A stretch of 46,649 bases of DNA from positions 1-46,649 of the forward strand of contig CAZAUE010000004.1 in the NCBI GenBank assembly GCA_964488565.1. Direction: 5' to 3'. The translations under genes and the position numbers were made by a program. Source of the DNA: an uncultured Candidatus Saccharibacteria bacterium. Lineage in GTDB: Bacteria; Patescibacteriota; Minisyncoccia; 2-02-FULL-40-12; GWA2-44-9. The notes beneath the pieces are model-generated. The model made no database searches, was not told where the DNA came from, and saw nothing but the letters and a program-made list of their open reading frames with translations. Shown here one piece after another: positions 38,631 through 41,748 of this stretch (positions are counted from its first letter, which is position 1; each line of letters begins with the position of its first letter).

Positions 38631-39830
38631 ATGGAATCAACCCCAAATAATGCTTATATAAATACGACTGGGAGCCTCAAAAAAAAGGTTTTGTTTGTAA
38701 TTACACAATCAGAACTGGGAGGCGCACAAAGATTTCTTTCTACTCTCACCTCTCATCTCGATAAAGAACTTTATGAGATCTTGGTTGCGGTTGGCTCAAG
38801 TGGAAATGGTGATTTTTTGAGAGTTTTAAAAGCCGGAGGAATCTCACACAAGACCTTAAAATTTCTAAAACGAGAACCTGCTCTAAGCGACATCAAAGCT
38901 GTTTTTGAAATCCGCAGTTTAATCAAAAACTATCGTCCTGATATTTTATTCTTAAACAGCTCCAAGGCAGGATTTATTGGTTCCTTGGCGACTGTTTTTC
39001 CAACAAGAATAAATGCATTAAAAGTGGTTTACAGAATTGGTGGCTGGTCATTTAACGACCCGTGGCCAAAATGGAAAAAATGTTTTTGGGTAATTTTAGA
39101 ATGGATTAGCGCAAAATGGAAAGACGTCATCATTGTTAACAACCAACACGACTTAGATCAAGCTAAAAAACTTAAAATTAAACCACGAAGACAAGTAGCA
39201 TTAGTTCATAATGGTATTGAGGTTTATAAATTAGACTTCCTGCAAAAAGAAGAAGCGCGAGCAAGATTAATTGAAAAAGTTGAAAAATTATCTGGTAAAA
39301 ATATTTCGGCAAAAAACATAATCGGCACTATCGCAAATTTTTACCCAACCAAGGGTCTGGAGTATCTCATTGGGGCTGCCGATTATTTTAAAGATGATGA
39401 CAACACGATTTTCTTTATTATTGGCGACGGAGAATTACGACCTGAAATCCAAAAAACAATAATAGAAAAAGGGTTAGAAAAAAAGATTTTCCTTTTGGGA
39501 CAAATTCCCGATGCGTATCGATTTTTACCAGCCTTTGATGTTTTTGTTCTTTCATCCGTAAAAGAAGGTTTTCCGTGGAGTTTAGTTGAGGCAATGTCGG
39601 CCAAATTACCTGTTATTGCCACCAATGTTGGAGCTGTGCCTGAAATAATCAATGACCATAAAAATGGCTTACTTGTAGAACCAAGAGATTCCATGGGATT
39701 AGCAGATGGAATTAAAGAAATTTTAGGAAAAGACCTCCTCAAAAACGAACTGGGAATTCAAGCTCACCAAACCGTACTCTTCAAATTTGAACTTGATAAA
39801 ATGGTAAAGCAGATTGAAGATTTGTTATAA
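38631..39830 (+). CDS. GT4 glycosyltransferase
   Basis: ITQSELGGAQ, NSSKAG, VHNGI, KGL.YL, EGFPWSLVEAMSA. Confidence 0.9.
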   Translation: MESTPNNAYINTTGSLKKKVLFVITQSELGGAQRFLSTLTSHLDKELYEILVAVGSSGNGDFLRVLKAGGISHKTLKFLKREPALSDIKAVFEIRSLIKNYRPDILFLNSSKAGFIGSLATVFPTRINALKVVYRIGGWSFNDPWPKWKKCFWVILEWISAKWKDVIIVNNQHDLDQAKKLKIKPRRQVALVHNGIEVYKLDFLQKEEARARLIEKVEKLSGKNISAKNIIGTIANFYPTKGLEYLIGAADYFKDDDNTIFFIIGDGELRPEIQKTIIEKGLEKKIFLLGQIPDAYRFLPAFDVFVLSSVKEGFPWSLVEAMSAKLPVIATNVGAVPEIINDHKNGLLVEPRDSMGLADGIKEILGKDLLKNELGIQAHQTVLFKFELDKMVKQIEDLL

Positions 39831-40264
39831 GCCCTAAGCACTAAATCCGAAATCCTAAACAATATCTAATGACCGAAATAAAAACTAAAAAATATGACCT
39901 CGAGGAACGGACATTTGAATTTACCAAGAAAACTATTGAATTTATCAATAAGTTGCCAAAAACGATAAGCAACAATGAGATAGCCAAGCAATTAATGCGC
40001 TCATCTGGTTCTGTCGGGGCAAACTACATAGAAGCTAACGAATCTCTGGGTAAAAAAGATTTTATTCTACACATAAGAATCAGTCGAAAAGAAGCTAAGG
40101 AAACTATTTATTGGTTAAAACTTTTAAACAGTGGGGCTGACGATTTAATTCAAGAAGCTACAGAGCTAATGAAAATTTTTGGAGCAATACTGGGAAAATC
40201 TCAGTAGTTTTGGATTTATTATTTTGAATTTGTTTAGAATTTAGATATTAGGATTTAGGATTTA
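39828..40264. mobile_element. putative element: four-helix-bundle gene enclosed by inverted heptamer-repeat arms
   Basis: Left arm TAAGCCC TAAGCAC TAAATCC GAAATCC TAAACAA (39828-39862); right arm (40230-40264) reverse complement TAAATCC TAAATCC TAATATC TAAATTC TAAACAA; mobility is inferred, not shown. Confidence 0.6.
39869..40207 (+). CDS. four helix bundle protein (TIGR02436 / 23S rRNA IVP / Avd-like family)
   Basis: DLEERT..F, QLMRSSGSVGANYIEA, DF…I.ISRKEAKET.YWL.L, L..EATEL.KIF. Confidence 0.92.
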   Translation: MTEIKTKKYDLEERTFEFTKKTIEFINKLPKTISNNEIAKQLMRSSGSVGANYIEANESLGKKDFILHIRISRKEAKETIYWLKLLNSGADDLIQEATELMKIFGAILGKSQ

Positions 40265-41748
40265 TGAAAATACTTCGTATTTTATCTTTGGTGCTTTTGT
40301 TTGTCTTTTTTGCATCTTTTTTAATCCATCCTCTCTACTCTATTAATCAAGACATCGGGCGACATTTAAAATCAGGTGAGATAATTTGGCAGACAAAAAG
40401 CGTCTATAAAACAAACTTATTCTCATTTACCGAACCCGAACACTCATTCATAAACCACCACTGGTTAAGTGAGGTTTCTTTTTACGGCTTAAACAATGTC
40501 ATCGGACTGAAGGGTCTAATTCTGTTCAAAACTGTAATTTTATTGTTGTCTTTGTGGCTCTTGTTTCTGGCTGTCAAAAATAAGGCCGACCTTTGGATAT
40601 TTTTGATTTCTGCCATGGCTGGAATAATGATATGGACAGAACGCACTGATGTCAGACCGGAAATATTTAGTTATTTATTTTTATCATTCTTTATTTTTGC
40701 GATATTGCGGGCTAAATATCAAGGTCAGGCTCGATGGCTTTATTTTTTACCGATTGTTCAAATATTTTGGACAAACATGCATATATATTTTGCTTTGGGG
40801 CCAATACTTTTAACATTTTTCTTACTAGAAAAAATGTTAAATCCTAAGCACGAAATACTAAATCCTAAACAATATCAAAATTCAAATAAAGAAAGTTTCG
40901 GATTTTGGATTTGGGATTTGTTTAGAAATTCGAGATTAGAATTTAGGATTTGGCTGTTAGTTATTTTAGCTACGCTTATTAACCCCAATTTCATTTCTGG
41001 GGCTCTGTATCCCCTCGTTGTGCTAAAAAATTATGGGTATTCAATCGTTGAAAATCAGAACATATTTTTTCTTACTGATTACGGAATATTAATAAGAAAT
41101 ATTCAGTTGTTTCAACTCTCTTTGGCTGTGCTTATTTTAAGCTTTATATTCAGAAAGCGTATCGCCATATTTGAATTACTATCAGGAATTTTCTTTTCCA
41201 TAATGGCCATGAAAATGCTAAGAAATTTCGGTCCGTACGGCTTAGTATTTATACCCCTCACAACCCTCAATTTGTTTGGGATTAAATTAAGCACAAAAAA
41301 AGAGATGGCCGTGCTTATCTCTGTATGTGTTATTTTGATTTCTACCACCTCTTACAACATCAAAAACAAAGTCTCTCTTGCCATCCCCACAGGGGCAGAA
41401 AAGGCCGTTGAATTCGTTAGGAACAACAATATTAAAGGCCCGGTTTTTAATAACTTTGATGTTGGAAGTTTTTTAATATGGAAAATGTACCCCGACCAAA
41501 AAGTTTTTGTTGATGGGAGACCAGAGGCATATAGTCAGGAATTTTTTGAAAATATCTATAAACCCATGCAGATGGATCAGAAAATATGGGAAAAATATTC
41601 TAAAGAGTATGGTATTAACCATGTCTTTTTTGATCACCGTGACATAACTCCTTGGGCAAGAACTTTTCTTGCCAGAATATCACAGGATAAAAAATGGGAG
41701 AGAGTGTATCTTGATGAATATGCTGTCATATTCATCAAGAATTTCTAA
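40264..41748 (+). CDS. multi-pass membrane protein, GT-C-like, with an in-frame repeat-derived insertion
   Basis: DIGRHL..GE, NHHWLSE, RPE, WTNMH, INP, R...P, FN.F..G.FL.W, VFVDGR. Confidence 0.65.
   Translation: MKILRILSLVLLFVFFASFLIHPLYSINQDIGRHLKSGEIIWQTKSVYKTNLFSFTEPEHSFINHHWLSEVSFYGLNNVIGLKGLILFKTVILLLSLWLLFLAVKNKADLWIFLISAMAGIMIWTERTDVRPEIFSYLFLSFFIFAILRAKYQGQARWLYFLPIVQIFWTNMHIYFALGPILLTFFLLEKMLNPKHEILNPKQYQNSNKESFGFWIWDLFRNSRLEFRIWLLVILATLINPNFISGALYPLVVLKNYGYSIVENQNIFFLTDYGILIRNIQLFQLSLAVLILSFIFRKRIAIFELLSGIFFSIMAMKMLRNFGPYGLVFIPLTTLNLFGIKLSTKKEMAVLISVCVILISTTSYNIKNKVSLAIPTGAEKAVEFVRNNNIKGPVFNNFDVGSFLIWKMYPDQKVFVDGRPEAYSQEFFENIYKPMQMDQKIWEKYSKEYGINHVFFDHRDITPWARTFLARISQDKKWERVYLDEYAVIFIKNF
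40838..40952. repeat. gene-less (MITE-like) copy of the heptamer-arm element, in frame within a CDS
   Basis: Left TAAATCC TAAGCAC GAAATAC TAAATCC TAAACAA TATC; right reverse complement CAAATCC TAAATTC TAATCTC GAATTTC TAAACAA ATCC; translated as LNPKHEILNPKQYQNSNKESFGFWIWDLFRNSRLEFRIW. Confidence 0.8.

Follow-up and report, generated by a model that had tools for sequence, protein, structure and literature searches.

A four-helix-bundle gene between mirrored heptamer arms in a Candidatus Saccharibacteria genome: a probable free-standing relative of the intervening sequences of ribosomal RNA genes

A gene of the TIGR02436 family, which encodes a small four-helix-bundle protein, lies between two mirrored arms of 7-bp repeats at positions 39828-40264 of a contig from an uncultured Candidatus Saccharibacteria bacterium (NCBI GenBank assembly GCA_964488565.1, contig CAZAUE010000004.1). 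The window, i.e., the whole stretch of DNA that was analysed, has 46,649 nucleotides (nt) and is the entire contig C4 of a 745-kb genome (G000) of 31 contigs and 39% G+C. Gene and arms very probably form one conserved, insertable unit related to the intervening sequences (IVSs) of ribosomal RNA (rRNA) genes, and the 437-bp unit of the window is best read, with less assurance, as a free-standing selfish hairpin element of the rRNA-IVS type that carries a gene. The unit of gene and arms recurs across phyla; it is found at different junctions, and at orthologous sites one genome may have it where another does not. The same genomes also contain scattered gene-less derivatives, some of which lie within coding sequence and keep the reading frame; and the design is the same in 16S and 23S rRNA genes and between protein genes. 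A preliminary description, made from the letters of the window, had taken the unit for a candidate undescribed mobile or regulatory element. Its insertable nature is upheld by an occupied and an empty site in the genomes G026 and G032, by the relative at the def|fmt junction of G013 and by the dispersed gene-less copies. The word “undescribed” has to be given up, since the design is that of the rRNA IVS, for which the Coxiella stem, its cutting by RNase III and the heptamers are in print (excerpts of PMC4990558).

Anatomy of the Unit

Each arm is composed of four NAAnnnC heptamers followed by TAAACAA, and the two arms mirror each other, one 5′ and one 3′ of the gene. The unit fills the junction between a GT4-family glycosyltransferase gene and a membrane-protein gene to the base. 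Both this exact fit and the anatomy of the arms, as first described, are borne out by the sequence and by the open reading frames (ORFs). The features of the region are the following:

38631..39830, plus strand: GT4-family glycosyltransferase ORF, the upstream context; it is terminated by the first TAA of the left arm
39828..39866, plus strand: left arm, TAAGCCC TAAGCAC TAAATCC GAAATCC TAAACAA TATC
39869..40207, plus strand: four-helix-bundle gene, 112 amino acids (aa), TIGR02436/PF05635 (23S_rRNA_IVP, “S23p”), with profile scores above the cut-offs
40208..40225, plus strand: 3′ segment from the stop codon to the right arm (TTTTGGATTTATTATTTT...), retained in gene-less copies
40226..40264, minus strand: right arm, on that strand TAAATCC TAAATCC TAATATC TAAATTC TAAACAA ATTC
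40264..41748, plus strand: membrane-protein ORF, 494 aa, the downstream context; its ATG overlaps the final base of the right arm
40838..40966, plus strand: gene-less copy, TAAATCC TAAGCAC GAAATAC TAAATCC TAAACAA, a short loop and a right arm

Base 40264 is the A of the membrane-protein ATG, and the AGGA found at 3 and 10 nt before this ATG is supplied by the right arm (plus strand). The enclosed ATG begins 6 nt past the TAAACAA of the left arm. In a repeat search the arms are detected as inverted repeats of 25 nt with 72% complementarity and a 10-nt perfect core. As terminal inverted repeats they can form a stem around the ORF, which is the arrangement of an IVS, and the stem is less perfect than the 28-bp stem of Coxiella. 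The heptamers that lie directly 5′ of the S23p start in a Coxiella-type IVS have their counterpart here in the four heptamers and TAAACAA. The location in an rRNA gene that is typical of IVSs is not found, as the unit stands between the GT4 and membrane-protein genes. Profile scans gave no family match for the membrane protein, and in Rfam no family was matched, the best match (E 1.7) being far under the gathering score.

Flanks of Homologous Genes

The arms of the window were compared with the flanks of homologues at two levels. The order-level set consisted of the genome and 40 relatives, and TIGR02436 matches were present in 30 of these 41 genomes, at 60 places; 48 places were kept (E <= 6e-17), 12 weak or partial ones were dropped, and 3 more were lost to N runs or contig ends, so that 45 homologues were usable. 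A flank was counted as periodic when its best self-similarity lag was 7 or 8 at >= 0.6 in 28-nt windows, and 616 ORFs of G000 served as control. At least one periodic flank is present at 41 of the 45 homologues and at 32 of the 616 control ORFs. Both flanks are periodic at 15 of the homologues and at none of the controls, and a left flank at least 0.70 identical to the reverse-complemented right flank is seen at 22 and 2, respectively. Lag 7 is the best lag in 56/90 homologue flanks versus 113/1232 control flanks. The heptamer unit varies between loci, but the two flanks of any one gene share it (GGTTACA, ATAGGNN, CTAAAGA, ACAAGNN, GAAACTT, GTAACTA), and the unit types track the protein clades of these homologues.

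The cross-phylum set was obtained from a scan of one genome per species, from which the best 80 of 595 confirmed relatives were taken (54-70% identical; 79 usable). These best 80 span Myxococcales, Ignavibacteria, Omnitrophota, Dehalococcoidia, Planctomycetota, Bacteroidota, Nitrospirota, Verrucomicrobiota, Gammaproteobacteria, and several groups of the candidate phyla radiation (CPR). A periodic flank is present at 69 of the 79 loci, both flanks are periodic at 38, and 50 have mirrored flanks. The enrichment of arms around TIGR02436 homologues, which had been named beforehand as a test of the element, is therefore seen in both sets (41/45 and 69/79, versus 32/616 controls).

The common cross-phylum arm consensus consists of (T/G)AAATCC units, then (T/G)AAACAA, 6 nt, and ATG. 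Unit-by-unit parsing succeeded for 23 of 81 arms-loci, of which two were dropped, leaving 21. At 7 of these 21 parsed loci AAGCAC is the third unit from TAAACAA in the left arm, where it is also found in the window (second unit from outside), and at 8 of them AATATC is the second unit from TAAACAA in the right arm, again as in the window. The two arms of the parsed loci are not plain copies of each other. The length of the heptamer tract is about 2 to 5 units, with modes 2 and 4. The earlier suggestion that five heptamers per arm match a pentameric protein thus finds no support, while binding itself is not refuted by this variation.

The possibility that the heptamers act as three-frame stop signals was considered and rejected. 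Stops in all frames within 42 nt upstream occur in 24/79 (30%) and 22/47 (47%) of homologue flanks versus 200/619 (32%) of control ORFs, and the GAAATCC unit of G+C-rich hosts is free of stops.

Copies with the same periodic mirrored arms are also found in rRNA genes, one in the 5′ part of a 23S gene (locus L047) and two in the 5′ part of 16S genes (L017, L054). Because these copies share the mirrored periodic arms, free-standing copies and classical intervening sequences can be regarded as one architecture.

Plasmid records yielded 30 matches, mostly cyanobacterial, and periodic flanks were found in 11 of the 12 that were examined, these being hand-picked and not random. Perfect arrays are present in Nostoc flagelliforme ((TAATTCG)x4 on both sides), N. 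punctiforme ((GGAAGTC)n), and Dolichospermum ((GGAATTT)x6), and further arrays in Planktothrix ((TAAATCG)n) and in a Chloroflexota plasmid (GATGAAN). Among 50,697 phage records there were merely 2 weak partial matches.

Six of the 12 examined plasmid copies (L145, L147, L149, L157, L161, L162) are located inside or beside a defence operon: at cas2|cas1 in Anabaena, beside cas1 in Pseudanabaena, at a helicase|N6-methylase junction in Chlorohelix, after a helicase-related gene in Dolichospermum, between DISARM DrmD and an MmeI-type enzyme in Planktothrix, and at DUF1156|Swt1-HEPN in Gloeocapsa. “23S rRNA IVP” has been listed among CRISPR-linked domains in a figure legend (excerpt of PMC10910872). 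Such locations may reflect either a role in defence or a tolerance of insertions there.

Gain, Loss, and Insertion Sites

The presence and absence of the unit at orthologous sites is seen most directly in two congeneric genomes. An occupied site in G026, with GGTTNCA arms, has 514 nt between flanks that are matched by an empty site in G032, where 76 nt separate them; the flanks are 71% and 67% identical. The closest unit in the order, that of G013, a genome of another genus (68% aa identity, same arm units), lies at def|fmt, and the def ORF ends in an arm TAA. At the def|fmt junction of G000 there is a lone left-type arm, which again provides the stop codon of def; the ATG of fmt follows 6 nt after its end. 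A further locus, L024 (G022:C17, 1440-1660), comprises a left arm of AAAGTGA type and about 60 codons of a truncated four-helix-bundle gene, and it looks like a decaying copy. It is situated directly upstream of a gene that, judged by eye, starts like methionyl-tRNA synthetase.

In the same-genus comparison the gene is absent from the corresponding site in the relatives of G000, in keeping with the mobile element first proposed. The preliminary description had also proposed a comparison of the GT4|membrane-protein junction for an empty site, and none was found in related genomes or in the contigs of four metagenome runs. In 4 of 5 same-genus genomes the orthologue of the membrane-protein gene is preceded by other genes, and because of this the junction has no empty-site comparator. 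A different four-helix-bundle gene is found just downstream of the orthologue in G002.

The metagenome contigs, which come from groundwater (runs X1, X3, X5, X7, of which two may be the origin of the DNA studied here), cover the locus without differences and break at the right arm. Apparent skips of about 340-370 nt have sides of just 22-34 nt and are arm-loop-arm copies from other loci or organisms. Summed contig depth in the four runs is about 100-400 on the arm segments (39824-39907, 40160-40327, 40832-40999) versus 5-10 on unique flanks. Because the depth on the arms is high and hundreds of contigs run from them into unrelated sequence, this arm type appears to be common to many loci or organisms of the groundwater community.

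The membrane protein of the window (494 aa) is 153-199 aa shorter at the C-terminus than four same-genus orthologues of 647-693 aa (L034, L036, L037, L038). The orthologues carry other lineage-specific insertions, of about 22 aa in G001 and of 13 aa in G005, which may be further small inserted elements.

Dispersed Arms and Gene-Less Copies

The strict arm pattern, (NAANNNC)x4+TAAANAA, was counted in the genome and in 20 second-order Markov simulations. The 745-kb genome contains 14 strict arms versus 0 in every one of the simulations, by which chance is excluded, and runs of four heptamers alone number 21 versus 0-2. In the 41 genomes a reversed-pattern control gave 1 match versus 45 real matches. 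An origin of the periodic mirrored flanks by chance, or from AT-rich low-complexity spacer, can be considered as refuted by these counts. It could draw on the AT-rich composition of the genome (39% G+C) and on some single pairs, among the 25 inverted-repeat pairs of the region, that are at chance level; it is opposed also by the preference of homologue flanks for lag 7 and by the occurrence of G+C-rich arm versions (GAAATCC, GGAAGTC, CAGGTTA) in other hosts.

The arms make up 12 loci in the genome, 9 of them intergenic, several with gaps of merely -3 to 7 nt, and 3 within ORFs. These loci include the gene-bearing pair of the window and five complete gene-less pairs of 75-129 bp (C4 40838-40966, C8, C12, C14, C19). 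Lone arms are found on C7, C10, C11, C15, and C28, in addition to a contig-end copy on C27. The repeat is thus dispersed in the genome and inverted around a gene, an arrangement shared with repetitive extragenic palindromes (REPs) and their associated tyrosine transposases (RAYTs). The gene-less copies are short dispersed palindromes, some in frame within coding sequence, as are miniature inverted-repeat transposable elements (MITEs) and Rickettsia palindromic elements.

The copy at 40838-40966 lies in frame within the membrane-protein gene, at residues ~193-233 (LNPKHEILNPKQYQNSNKESFGFWIWDLFRNSRLEFRIW). In an alignment this stretch is absent from four same-genus orthologues and hence is an insertion relative to them. 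Its RNA forms a hairpin of -29.1 kcal/mol (z -3.79). The 5′ half is identical to 39828-39869 at 36/42 positions and the 3′ half to 40206-40263 at 48/58. Because the two halves align to the two ends of the unit, the gene-less copy corresponds to the unit minus its ORF. The gene-less copy on C19 retains TATCTAATGACC, the first two codons of the gene.

Single arms at C10:12979-13030 and C7:22860-22925 lie in long ORFs (C10 10422-13868 and C7 22599-24143), whose frames continue through them with peptides like SKSEILNPKQIQNSN. The segment C27:1-200 starts inside a right arm and is then near-identical, with few bases differing, to C19:6820-6940 downstream of the C19 element. This near-duplicate represents either a second strain or a duplicated locus, and the assembly breaks at the repeat.

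Array Type and Resident Gene

The type of dispersed array was also compared with the type of gene that a genome contains. CAGG-type arrays (CAGGNNNCAGGNNNCAGG) number 86 in G026, mostly as convergent pairs 30-50 nt apart, and at most 2 in each of the other 40 genomes; this near-absence is the fair control, because the patterns were chosen from the top-scoring genomes. G026 is the one genome with a CAGG-armed gene, and the congeneric G032, which is without it, has 0 such arrays. G013 and G026, which both have ATAG-armed four-helix-bundle genes, contain 24 and 38 ATAG-type arrays, respectively. CTAAAGA-type arrays are dispersed in G034 and G027, both with such genes, the pattern here matching the TAAATCC type as well and giving higher control counts. 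As to arms of the window type, a 2.5-Mb Chloroflexia genome contains 27 of them and one TIGR02436 gene, and a Planctomycetota genome contains 17, two pairs of which enclose genes.

The Encoded Protein

The 39869..40207 ORF is the sole TIGR02436 gene of the genome in a profile search. It scores 70.6 bits against TIGR02436 (cut-off 24; profile positions 3-106 of 109) and 57 bits against PF05635 (cut-off 33.8), and phmmer matches it to PDB 2rld_A with E 5.4e-10. The AlphaFold2 model (pLDDT 90.8) has helices at 12-27, 33-57, 62-85, and 91-111, and Foldseek gives TM 0.77-0.81 to 2rld (BT_0352) and ~0.8 to 2gsc (Xcc0516), which is the four-helix-bundle fold. The subfamily of the 112-aa protein is characterized by the motif KYDLEERT...GANY(I/M)EAN..(S)KKDF. 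The 2rld crystal entry has 5 chains, and a homopentameric ring has been described for Xcc0516 (excerpt of PMC4990558). By homology, the 112-aa protein would be a pentameric nucleic-acid binder.

The protein had been called Avd-like, after the accessory protein of diversity-generating retroelements (DGRs). The likeness stands at the level of the fold, and it is weak (Foldseek to the DGR Avd 4dwl: TM 0.57, E 0.26). At the level of sequence family it does not stand, as the bAvd profile PF22296 is not matched by the protein, for which the Pfam scan lists PF05635 only, and the DGR of the genome has a bAvd of its own.

Pairing of the Arms and Transcription

In the minimum free energy structure of the 451-nt RNA of the unit the two arms pair. 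The arm-to-arm duplex of the window amounts to -24.8 kcal/mol. In the subfamily (n=79) the mean duplex of a locus's own arms is -23.5 kcal/mol, versus -13.1 for shuffled and -15.6 for reversed arms, and at the order level (n=46) it is -20.7 kcal/mol versus -11.6 with the arms of other loci.

The neighbours of the gene are mostly oriented like it, 88/97 upstream and 82/96 downstream at 99 loci, although these 85-91% are only modestly above what is usual in compact genomes (no baseline was computed). The median gaps are 52 and 54.5 nt, which is just wide enough for the arms. Promoter-like sites at the unit number 5 versus 6.1 expected and are all on the minus strand, none being found on the plus strand, and the 15 nt that precede the four-helix-bundle ATG contain no purine run resembling a Shine-Dalgarno sequence. 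One weak terminator-like hairpin is present at 40188-40206. Read-through transcription fits these data, because the genes are co-oriented and the unit has neither a plus-strand promoter-like site nor a purine-rich ribosome-binding site, and it would correspond to the situation of IVS ORFs in rRNA. An RNase III gene (rnc) is present in the genome (G000:C5:15759-16415). Processing of the paired arms by this enzyme would be the most likely function at the RNA level, because it has been published for the stem of the Coxiella IVS.

Proposed Mechanism and Its Weight

A mechanism can be proposed along these lines. The unit, lacking a promoter of its own, would owe its transcription to read-through from the host operon, in the same sense, and its arms would pair in the transcript into an imperfect stem of ~35 bp. 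The host RNase III would cut this stem as in an rRNA IVS, by which a small mRNA would be released and the flanking messages separated. The chances that the arms do act as an RNase III stem are considered to be about even. The most speculative step is that the protein might recognise its own type of heptamer array and aid the spread or upkeep of cognate hairpins, a logic like that of REP/RAYT systems without the transposase fold. Action of the protein on cognate arrays is put forward tentatively, as the whole basis for a protein that reads its own array and promotes cognate hairpins is the co-occurrence of array type and resident gene.

A wider conjecture, which seems to us possible rather than probable, is that a pan-bacterial class of transposase-less mobile hairpins with heptamer-array termini exists, unrecognised as such, and has its trans-acting factor in the TIGR02436 proteins. 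The rRNA IVSs would then be copies that landed in rRNA helices, the arrays of cyanobacteria (short tandemly repeated repetitive, STRR, sequences), of Xanthomonas, and of others would be gene-less derivatives, and each protein lineage would read its own unit.

Several observations, besides the modest excess of co-orientation given above, weigh against these readings. The energy of the 451-nt fold is not unusual (z -1.68, with 6/100 shuffles folding as well). Compensation between the arms of the subfamily is near nil: matched units share 4.80/7 positions versus 4.56 with arms of other loci and 4.64 with other units. The mismatches show no G-U strand bias (37 vs 41), and the conserved odd units AAGCAC (left) and AATATC (right) create conserved mismatches. 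Because left/right compensation is scant and the G-U bias is missing, the order of units looks selected in each arm for itself, which would suit recognition by a protein. As regards mobility, the flanks of the gene-less copies have ~50% aa identity and no target-site duplication could be delimited, the sole gene-bearing form is without a known transposase, and for the heptamer-arm family as a whole neither a transposase parent of the MITE kind nor a defined target-site duplication was found. The contigs of the four metagenome runs include no empty-site allele and none joining GT4 to the membrane gene. To our knowledge the four-helix-bundle protein has no catalytic motif and no mechanism of movement, and we know of no activity of a TIGR02436 protein on DNA.

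The link between array type and resident gene is likewise imperfect. The patterns of this comparison were picked from genomes and then scored in them, and the clean contrast is one congeneric pair (G026/G032). In G032 there are 5 ATAG-type arrays, all of which are the own arms of its ATAG-type gene. G012, a genome that is 74% complete, contains 9 strict arms and gave no match to TIGR02436, and G018 has 4 TIGR02436 genes and no strict arms. The 12 ATAG-type arrays of G022 are not matched by the AAAGTGA-type remnant L024, which argues against strict dependence on the gene.

If the free-standing IVS-type reading holds, its significance is in the following. S23p/TIGR02436 is a large family of many phyla, and the present locus ties it to the over-represented heptamer arrays of bacteria. 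A TIGR02436 gene is almost always framed by mirrored heptamer arrays, the gene moves together with its arms across phyla as a unit, and genomes hold gene-less hairpins of the arm type of the resident gene. The candidate substrate of an S23p protein would be its own heptamer array, and the rRNA IVSs would then appear as one of the places in which a more general element lands. In practical terms, heptamer hairpins break metagenome assemblies, as seen here where contigs stop at the right arm, and they are a source of spurious ORFs and of peptides inserted in frame in annotated proteins.

Alternative Explanations

The scant compensation between the arms speaks for an alternative in which the arms are binding arrays by which the encoded protein regulates itself or its neighbours, with no pairing in RNA; the gene would then be an ordinary horizontally transferred one with a control region on both sides. 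This agrees also with the position-specific order of units kept across phyla (AAGCAC left in 7/21, AATATC right in 8/21), with the absence of a wobble bias, with arm types that follow the protein clades, and with homologues that are pentameric rings (the 5 chains of 2rld, and the Xcc0516 ring in excerpts of PMC4990558). However, gene-less arm pairs are dispersed, within coding sequence and at junctions far from any four-helix-bundle gene, and a genome may hold many arrays with one gene or none. The copies in rRNA act as RNA stems (excerpts of PMC4990558), the diverse arm types are complementary locus by locus (-20.7 vs -11.6 kcal/mol), and a unit number of ~2 to 5 has no fixed fit to a pentamer. 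The operator explanation is judged unlikely.

The dispersed copies could also be read the other way around. The heptamer hairpins would be primary, as terminators or mRNA stabilisers like REPs or bacterial interspersed mosaic elements, useful to the host or selfish and both formed and resized by polymerase slippage, and the ORF would be a passenger that lands in their loops, including the tips of rRNA helices, with the arms as its target. The lone arm of G000 at the def|fmt junction where G013 has arm, gene, and arm speaks for this, as does a gene-less copy that differs from the unit by exactly the ORF; arrays without a cognate gene, as in G012, point the same way. In the literature, Xanthomonas arrays, mostly of four units and convergent in 70/186 cases, are described without mention of S23p in the excerpts of PMC4692102, and CPR rRNA insertions lie at the tops or bases of stem-loops (excerpts of PMC11270868). 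Against a passenger stands the fact that, in at least ten phyla, one subfamily has one arm consensus at a constant distance of 6 nt from its ATG, which would be difficult to explain by hairpins of separate host origin. In other protein clades both arms are built of other units, and the dispersed CAGG-type family is restricted to the genome that has the CAGG-armed gene. The passenger explanation is given no more credence than the operator arrays, and the insertable IVS-type unit remains the preferred reading.

Other Mobile-Element Genes of the Genome

The preliminary description had stated that the window contains no transposase, integrase, or reverse transcriptase. For reverse transcriptases and Y1 transposases this is correct, as a profile search found none in the window and placed the matches of the genome solely on C18, C8, and C17; integrases were not searched for. 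RVT_1 has a single match in the genome, on C18, with a PF22296 bAvd next to it. At this locus (G000:C18:6256-7624; L155 1257-2622) a DGR-like pair is formed by a 340-aa RVT_1 reverse transcriptase and a 131-aa PF22296 bAvd-like protein, which is divergent and overlaps the start of the reverse transcriptase. The C18 bAvd has no BLASTP similarity to the 112-aa protein (E 0.55). Two IS200-like Y1_Tnp proteins are encoded at C17:1991-2659 (222 aa) and C8:25142-25861 (239 aa; L156). On each side of the C17 gene stands one and the same perfect G+C-rich hairpin (core ATTACCGACTTGCGAAGTCGGTAAT), unlike the heptamer arms, and gene and hairpins together look like a separate system of the REP/RAYT type. 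No heptamer arms were found beside either Y1 gene.

Two identities of the window gene were rejected on these grounds. It is not the Avd of a DGR, as the reverse transcriptase of the genome is on C18 with its own bAvd, unrelated in sequence to the 112-aa protein. It is not part of a REP/RAYT system, as it encodes a four-helix bundle, the Y1 genes are elsewhere, and the hairpin at the C17 Y1 gene is another one, with heptamer arms at neither gene. The genes on C8, C17, and C18 nevertheless make it conceivable that the hairpins are REP elements moved by the IS200-like Y1 transposases or copied by the reverse transcriptase, the four-helix-bundle gene having nothing to do with their spread. Since the C17 gene has its own different hairpin, neither Y1 gene adjoins heptamer arms, the reverse transcriptase has its own unrelated bAvd, and the arms are linked to TIGR02436 genes at 41/45, 69/79, and 11/12 loci of many genomes, such an origin is regarded as very improbable.

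Comparison with Known Systems

Heptanucleotides of the STRR type are known from heterocystous cyanobacteria. In more general terms, heptamer tandem arrays are over-represented in bacteria, for which there is no accepted explanation, as stated in excerpts of PMC4692102, which also mention the heptanucleotides of Calothrix. The GGGAATC arrays of Xanthomonas and the GGGGA(T/C)T arrays of Nostoc are described there as mostly of four units, mostly intergenic and near a neighbouring ORF, with 70/186 of the Xanthomonas arrays in convergent inverted pairs. The same paper treats arrays as possible formers of G-quadruplexes, and the terms “S23”, “intervening”, and “four-helix” are absent from its text.

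The literature on IVSs is separate, and the following is taken from excerpts of the papers named. The S23p ORF has been known from an rRNA intervening sequence since 1993 (Ralph and McClelland 1993, per PMC4990558), and an early proposal takes the IVS for a mobile element and gives its ORF a part in the mobility (PMC4990558, citing Ralph and McClelland 1993). In Coxiella burnetii the IVS is in helix 45 of 23S rRNA and has a 28-bp terminal-repeat stem, within which the cutting by RNase III has been mapped; 2-3 tandem GACAGAT heptamers precede the S23p ATG, and the 5′ cut is at the first repeat (PMC4990558). In CPR bacteria 23S_rRNA_IVP ORFs are present in 16S and 23S insertions, which are located at the tops or bases of stem-loops (PMC11270868). 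The domains cd16375 and PF05635 are homologous (PMC10053308).

In the main text of open-access papers, no paper was found on free-standing IVS-type units in protein-coding operons. Within the same scope no description was found of near-universal heptamer arms of TIGR02436 genes, of a cross-phylum consensus of gene and arms, of gene-less derivatives, or of a match between arm type and dispersed arrays. Full-text searches with the arm motif gave only unrelated primer matches, and heptamer arms of four-helix-bundle genes were met nowhere except in the Coxiella IVS. An earlier description in the subscription literature or in the Leptospira papers of Ralph and McClelland is possible.

Among the known systems, the Avd of DGRs is like the 112-aa protein in a distantly related four-helix-bundle fold, and unlike it in the company of a reverse transcriptase, none being near the gene of the window. 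REP/RAYT systems (REPtrons), as they are generally known, share with the present unit one small gene between inverted copies of a short repeat, and a repeat of which tens of further intergenic copies, often paired, are scattered without the gene; the type of the repeat matches the resident gene and varies by genome. They differ from it in that their gene is a Y1 (HUH) transposase and their repeat a single imperfect palindrome, whereas here a four-helix-bundle gene is combined with heptamer arrays. Rickettsia palindromic elements and MITE-like palindromes are, in the same general knowledge, dispersed palindromes comparable to those of ~75-130 bp found here, 3/12 arm loci being in ORFs and one in-frame insertion having been verified. 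However, the present family has a gene-bearing, “master-like” copy kept across phyla and arms that are internally periodic. The Xanthomonas and Nostoc arrays resemble the arms in the heptamer unit and in its number, mostly four per array (excerpts of PMC4692102), and the arrays of Nostocales plasmids found here are mirrored around four-helix-bundle genes.

The closest relatives are the rRNA IVSs of Coxiella, Leptospira, and CPR bacteria. In the excerpts cited above they have the same protein family, an ORF in the loop of a stem of terminal inverted repeats of ~28-35 nt, tandem heptamers before the start codon, an ORF in the sense of the host transcript, and a poor or absent Shine-Dalgarno sequence. 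The unit of the window is unlike them in its position between protein genes, in an arm family with gene-less copies that are dispersed also in coding sequence, and in a consensus of gene and arms that recurs across phyla; excision by RNase III, shown for the IVSs, is here presumed by analogy. Because heptamers and a 28-bp stem have already been published for the Coxiella IVS, the element of the window is not wholly new in kind. It is a variant of the IVS type already in print, yet a broad and largely unrecognised one.

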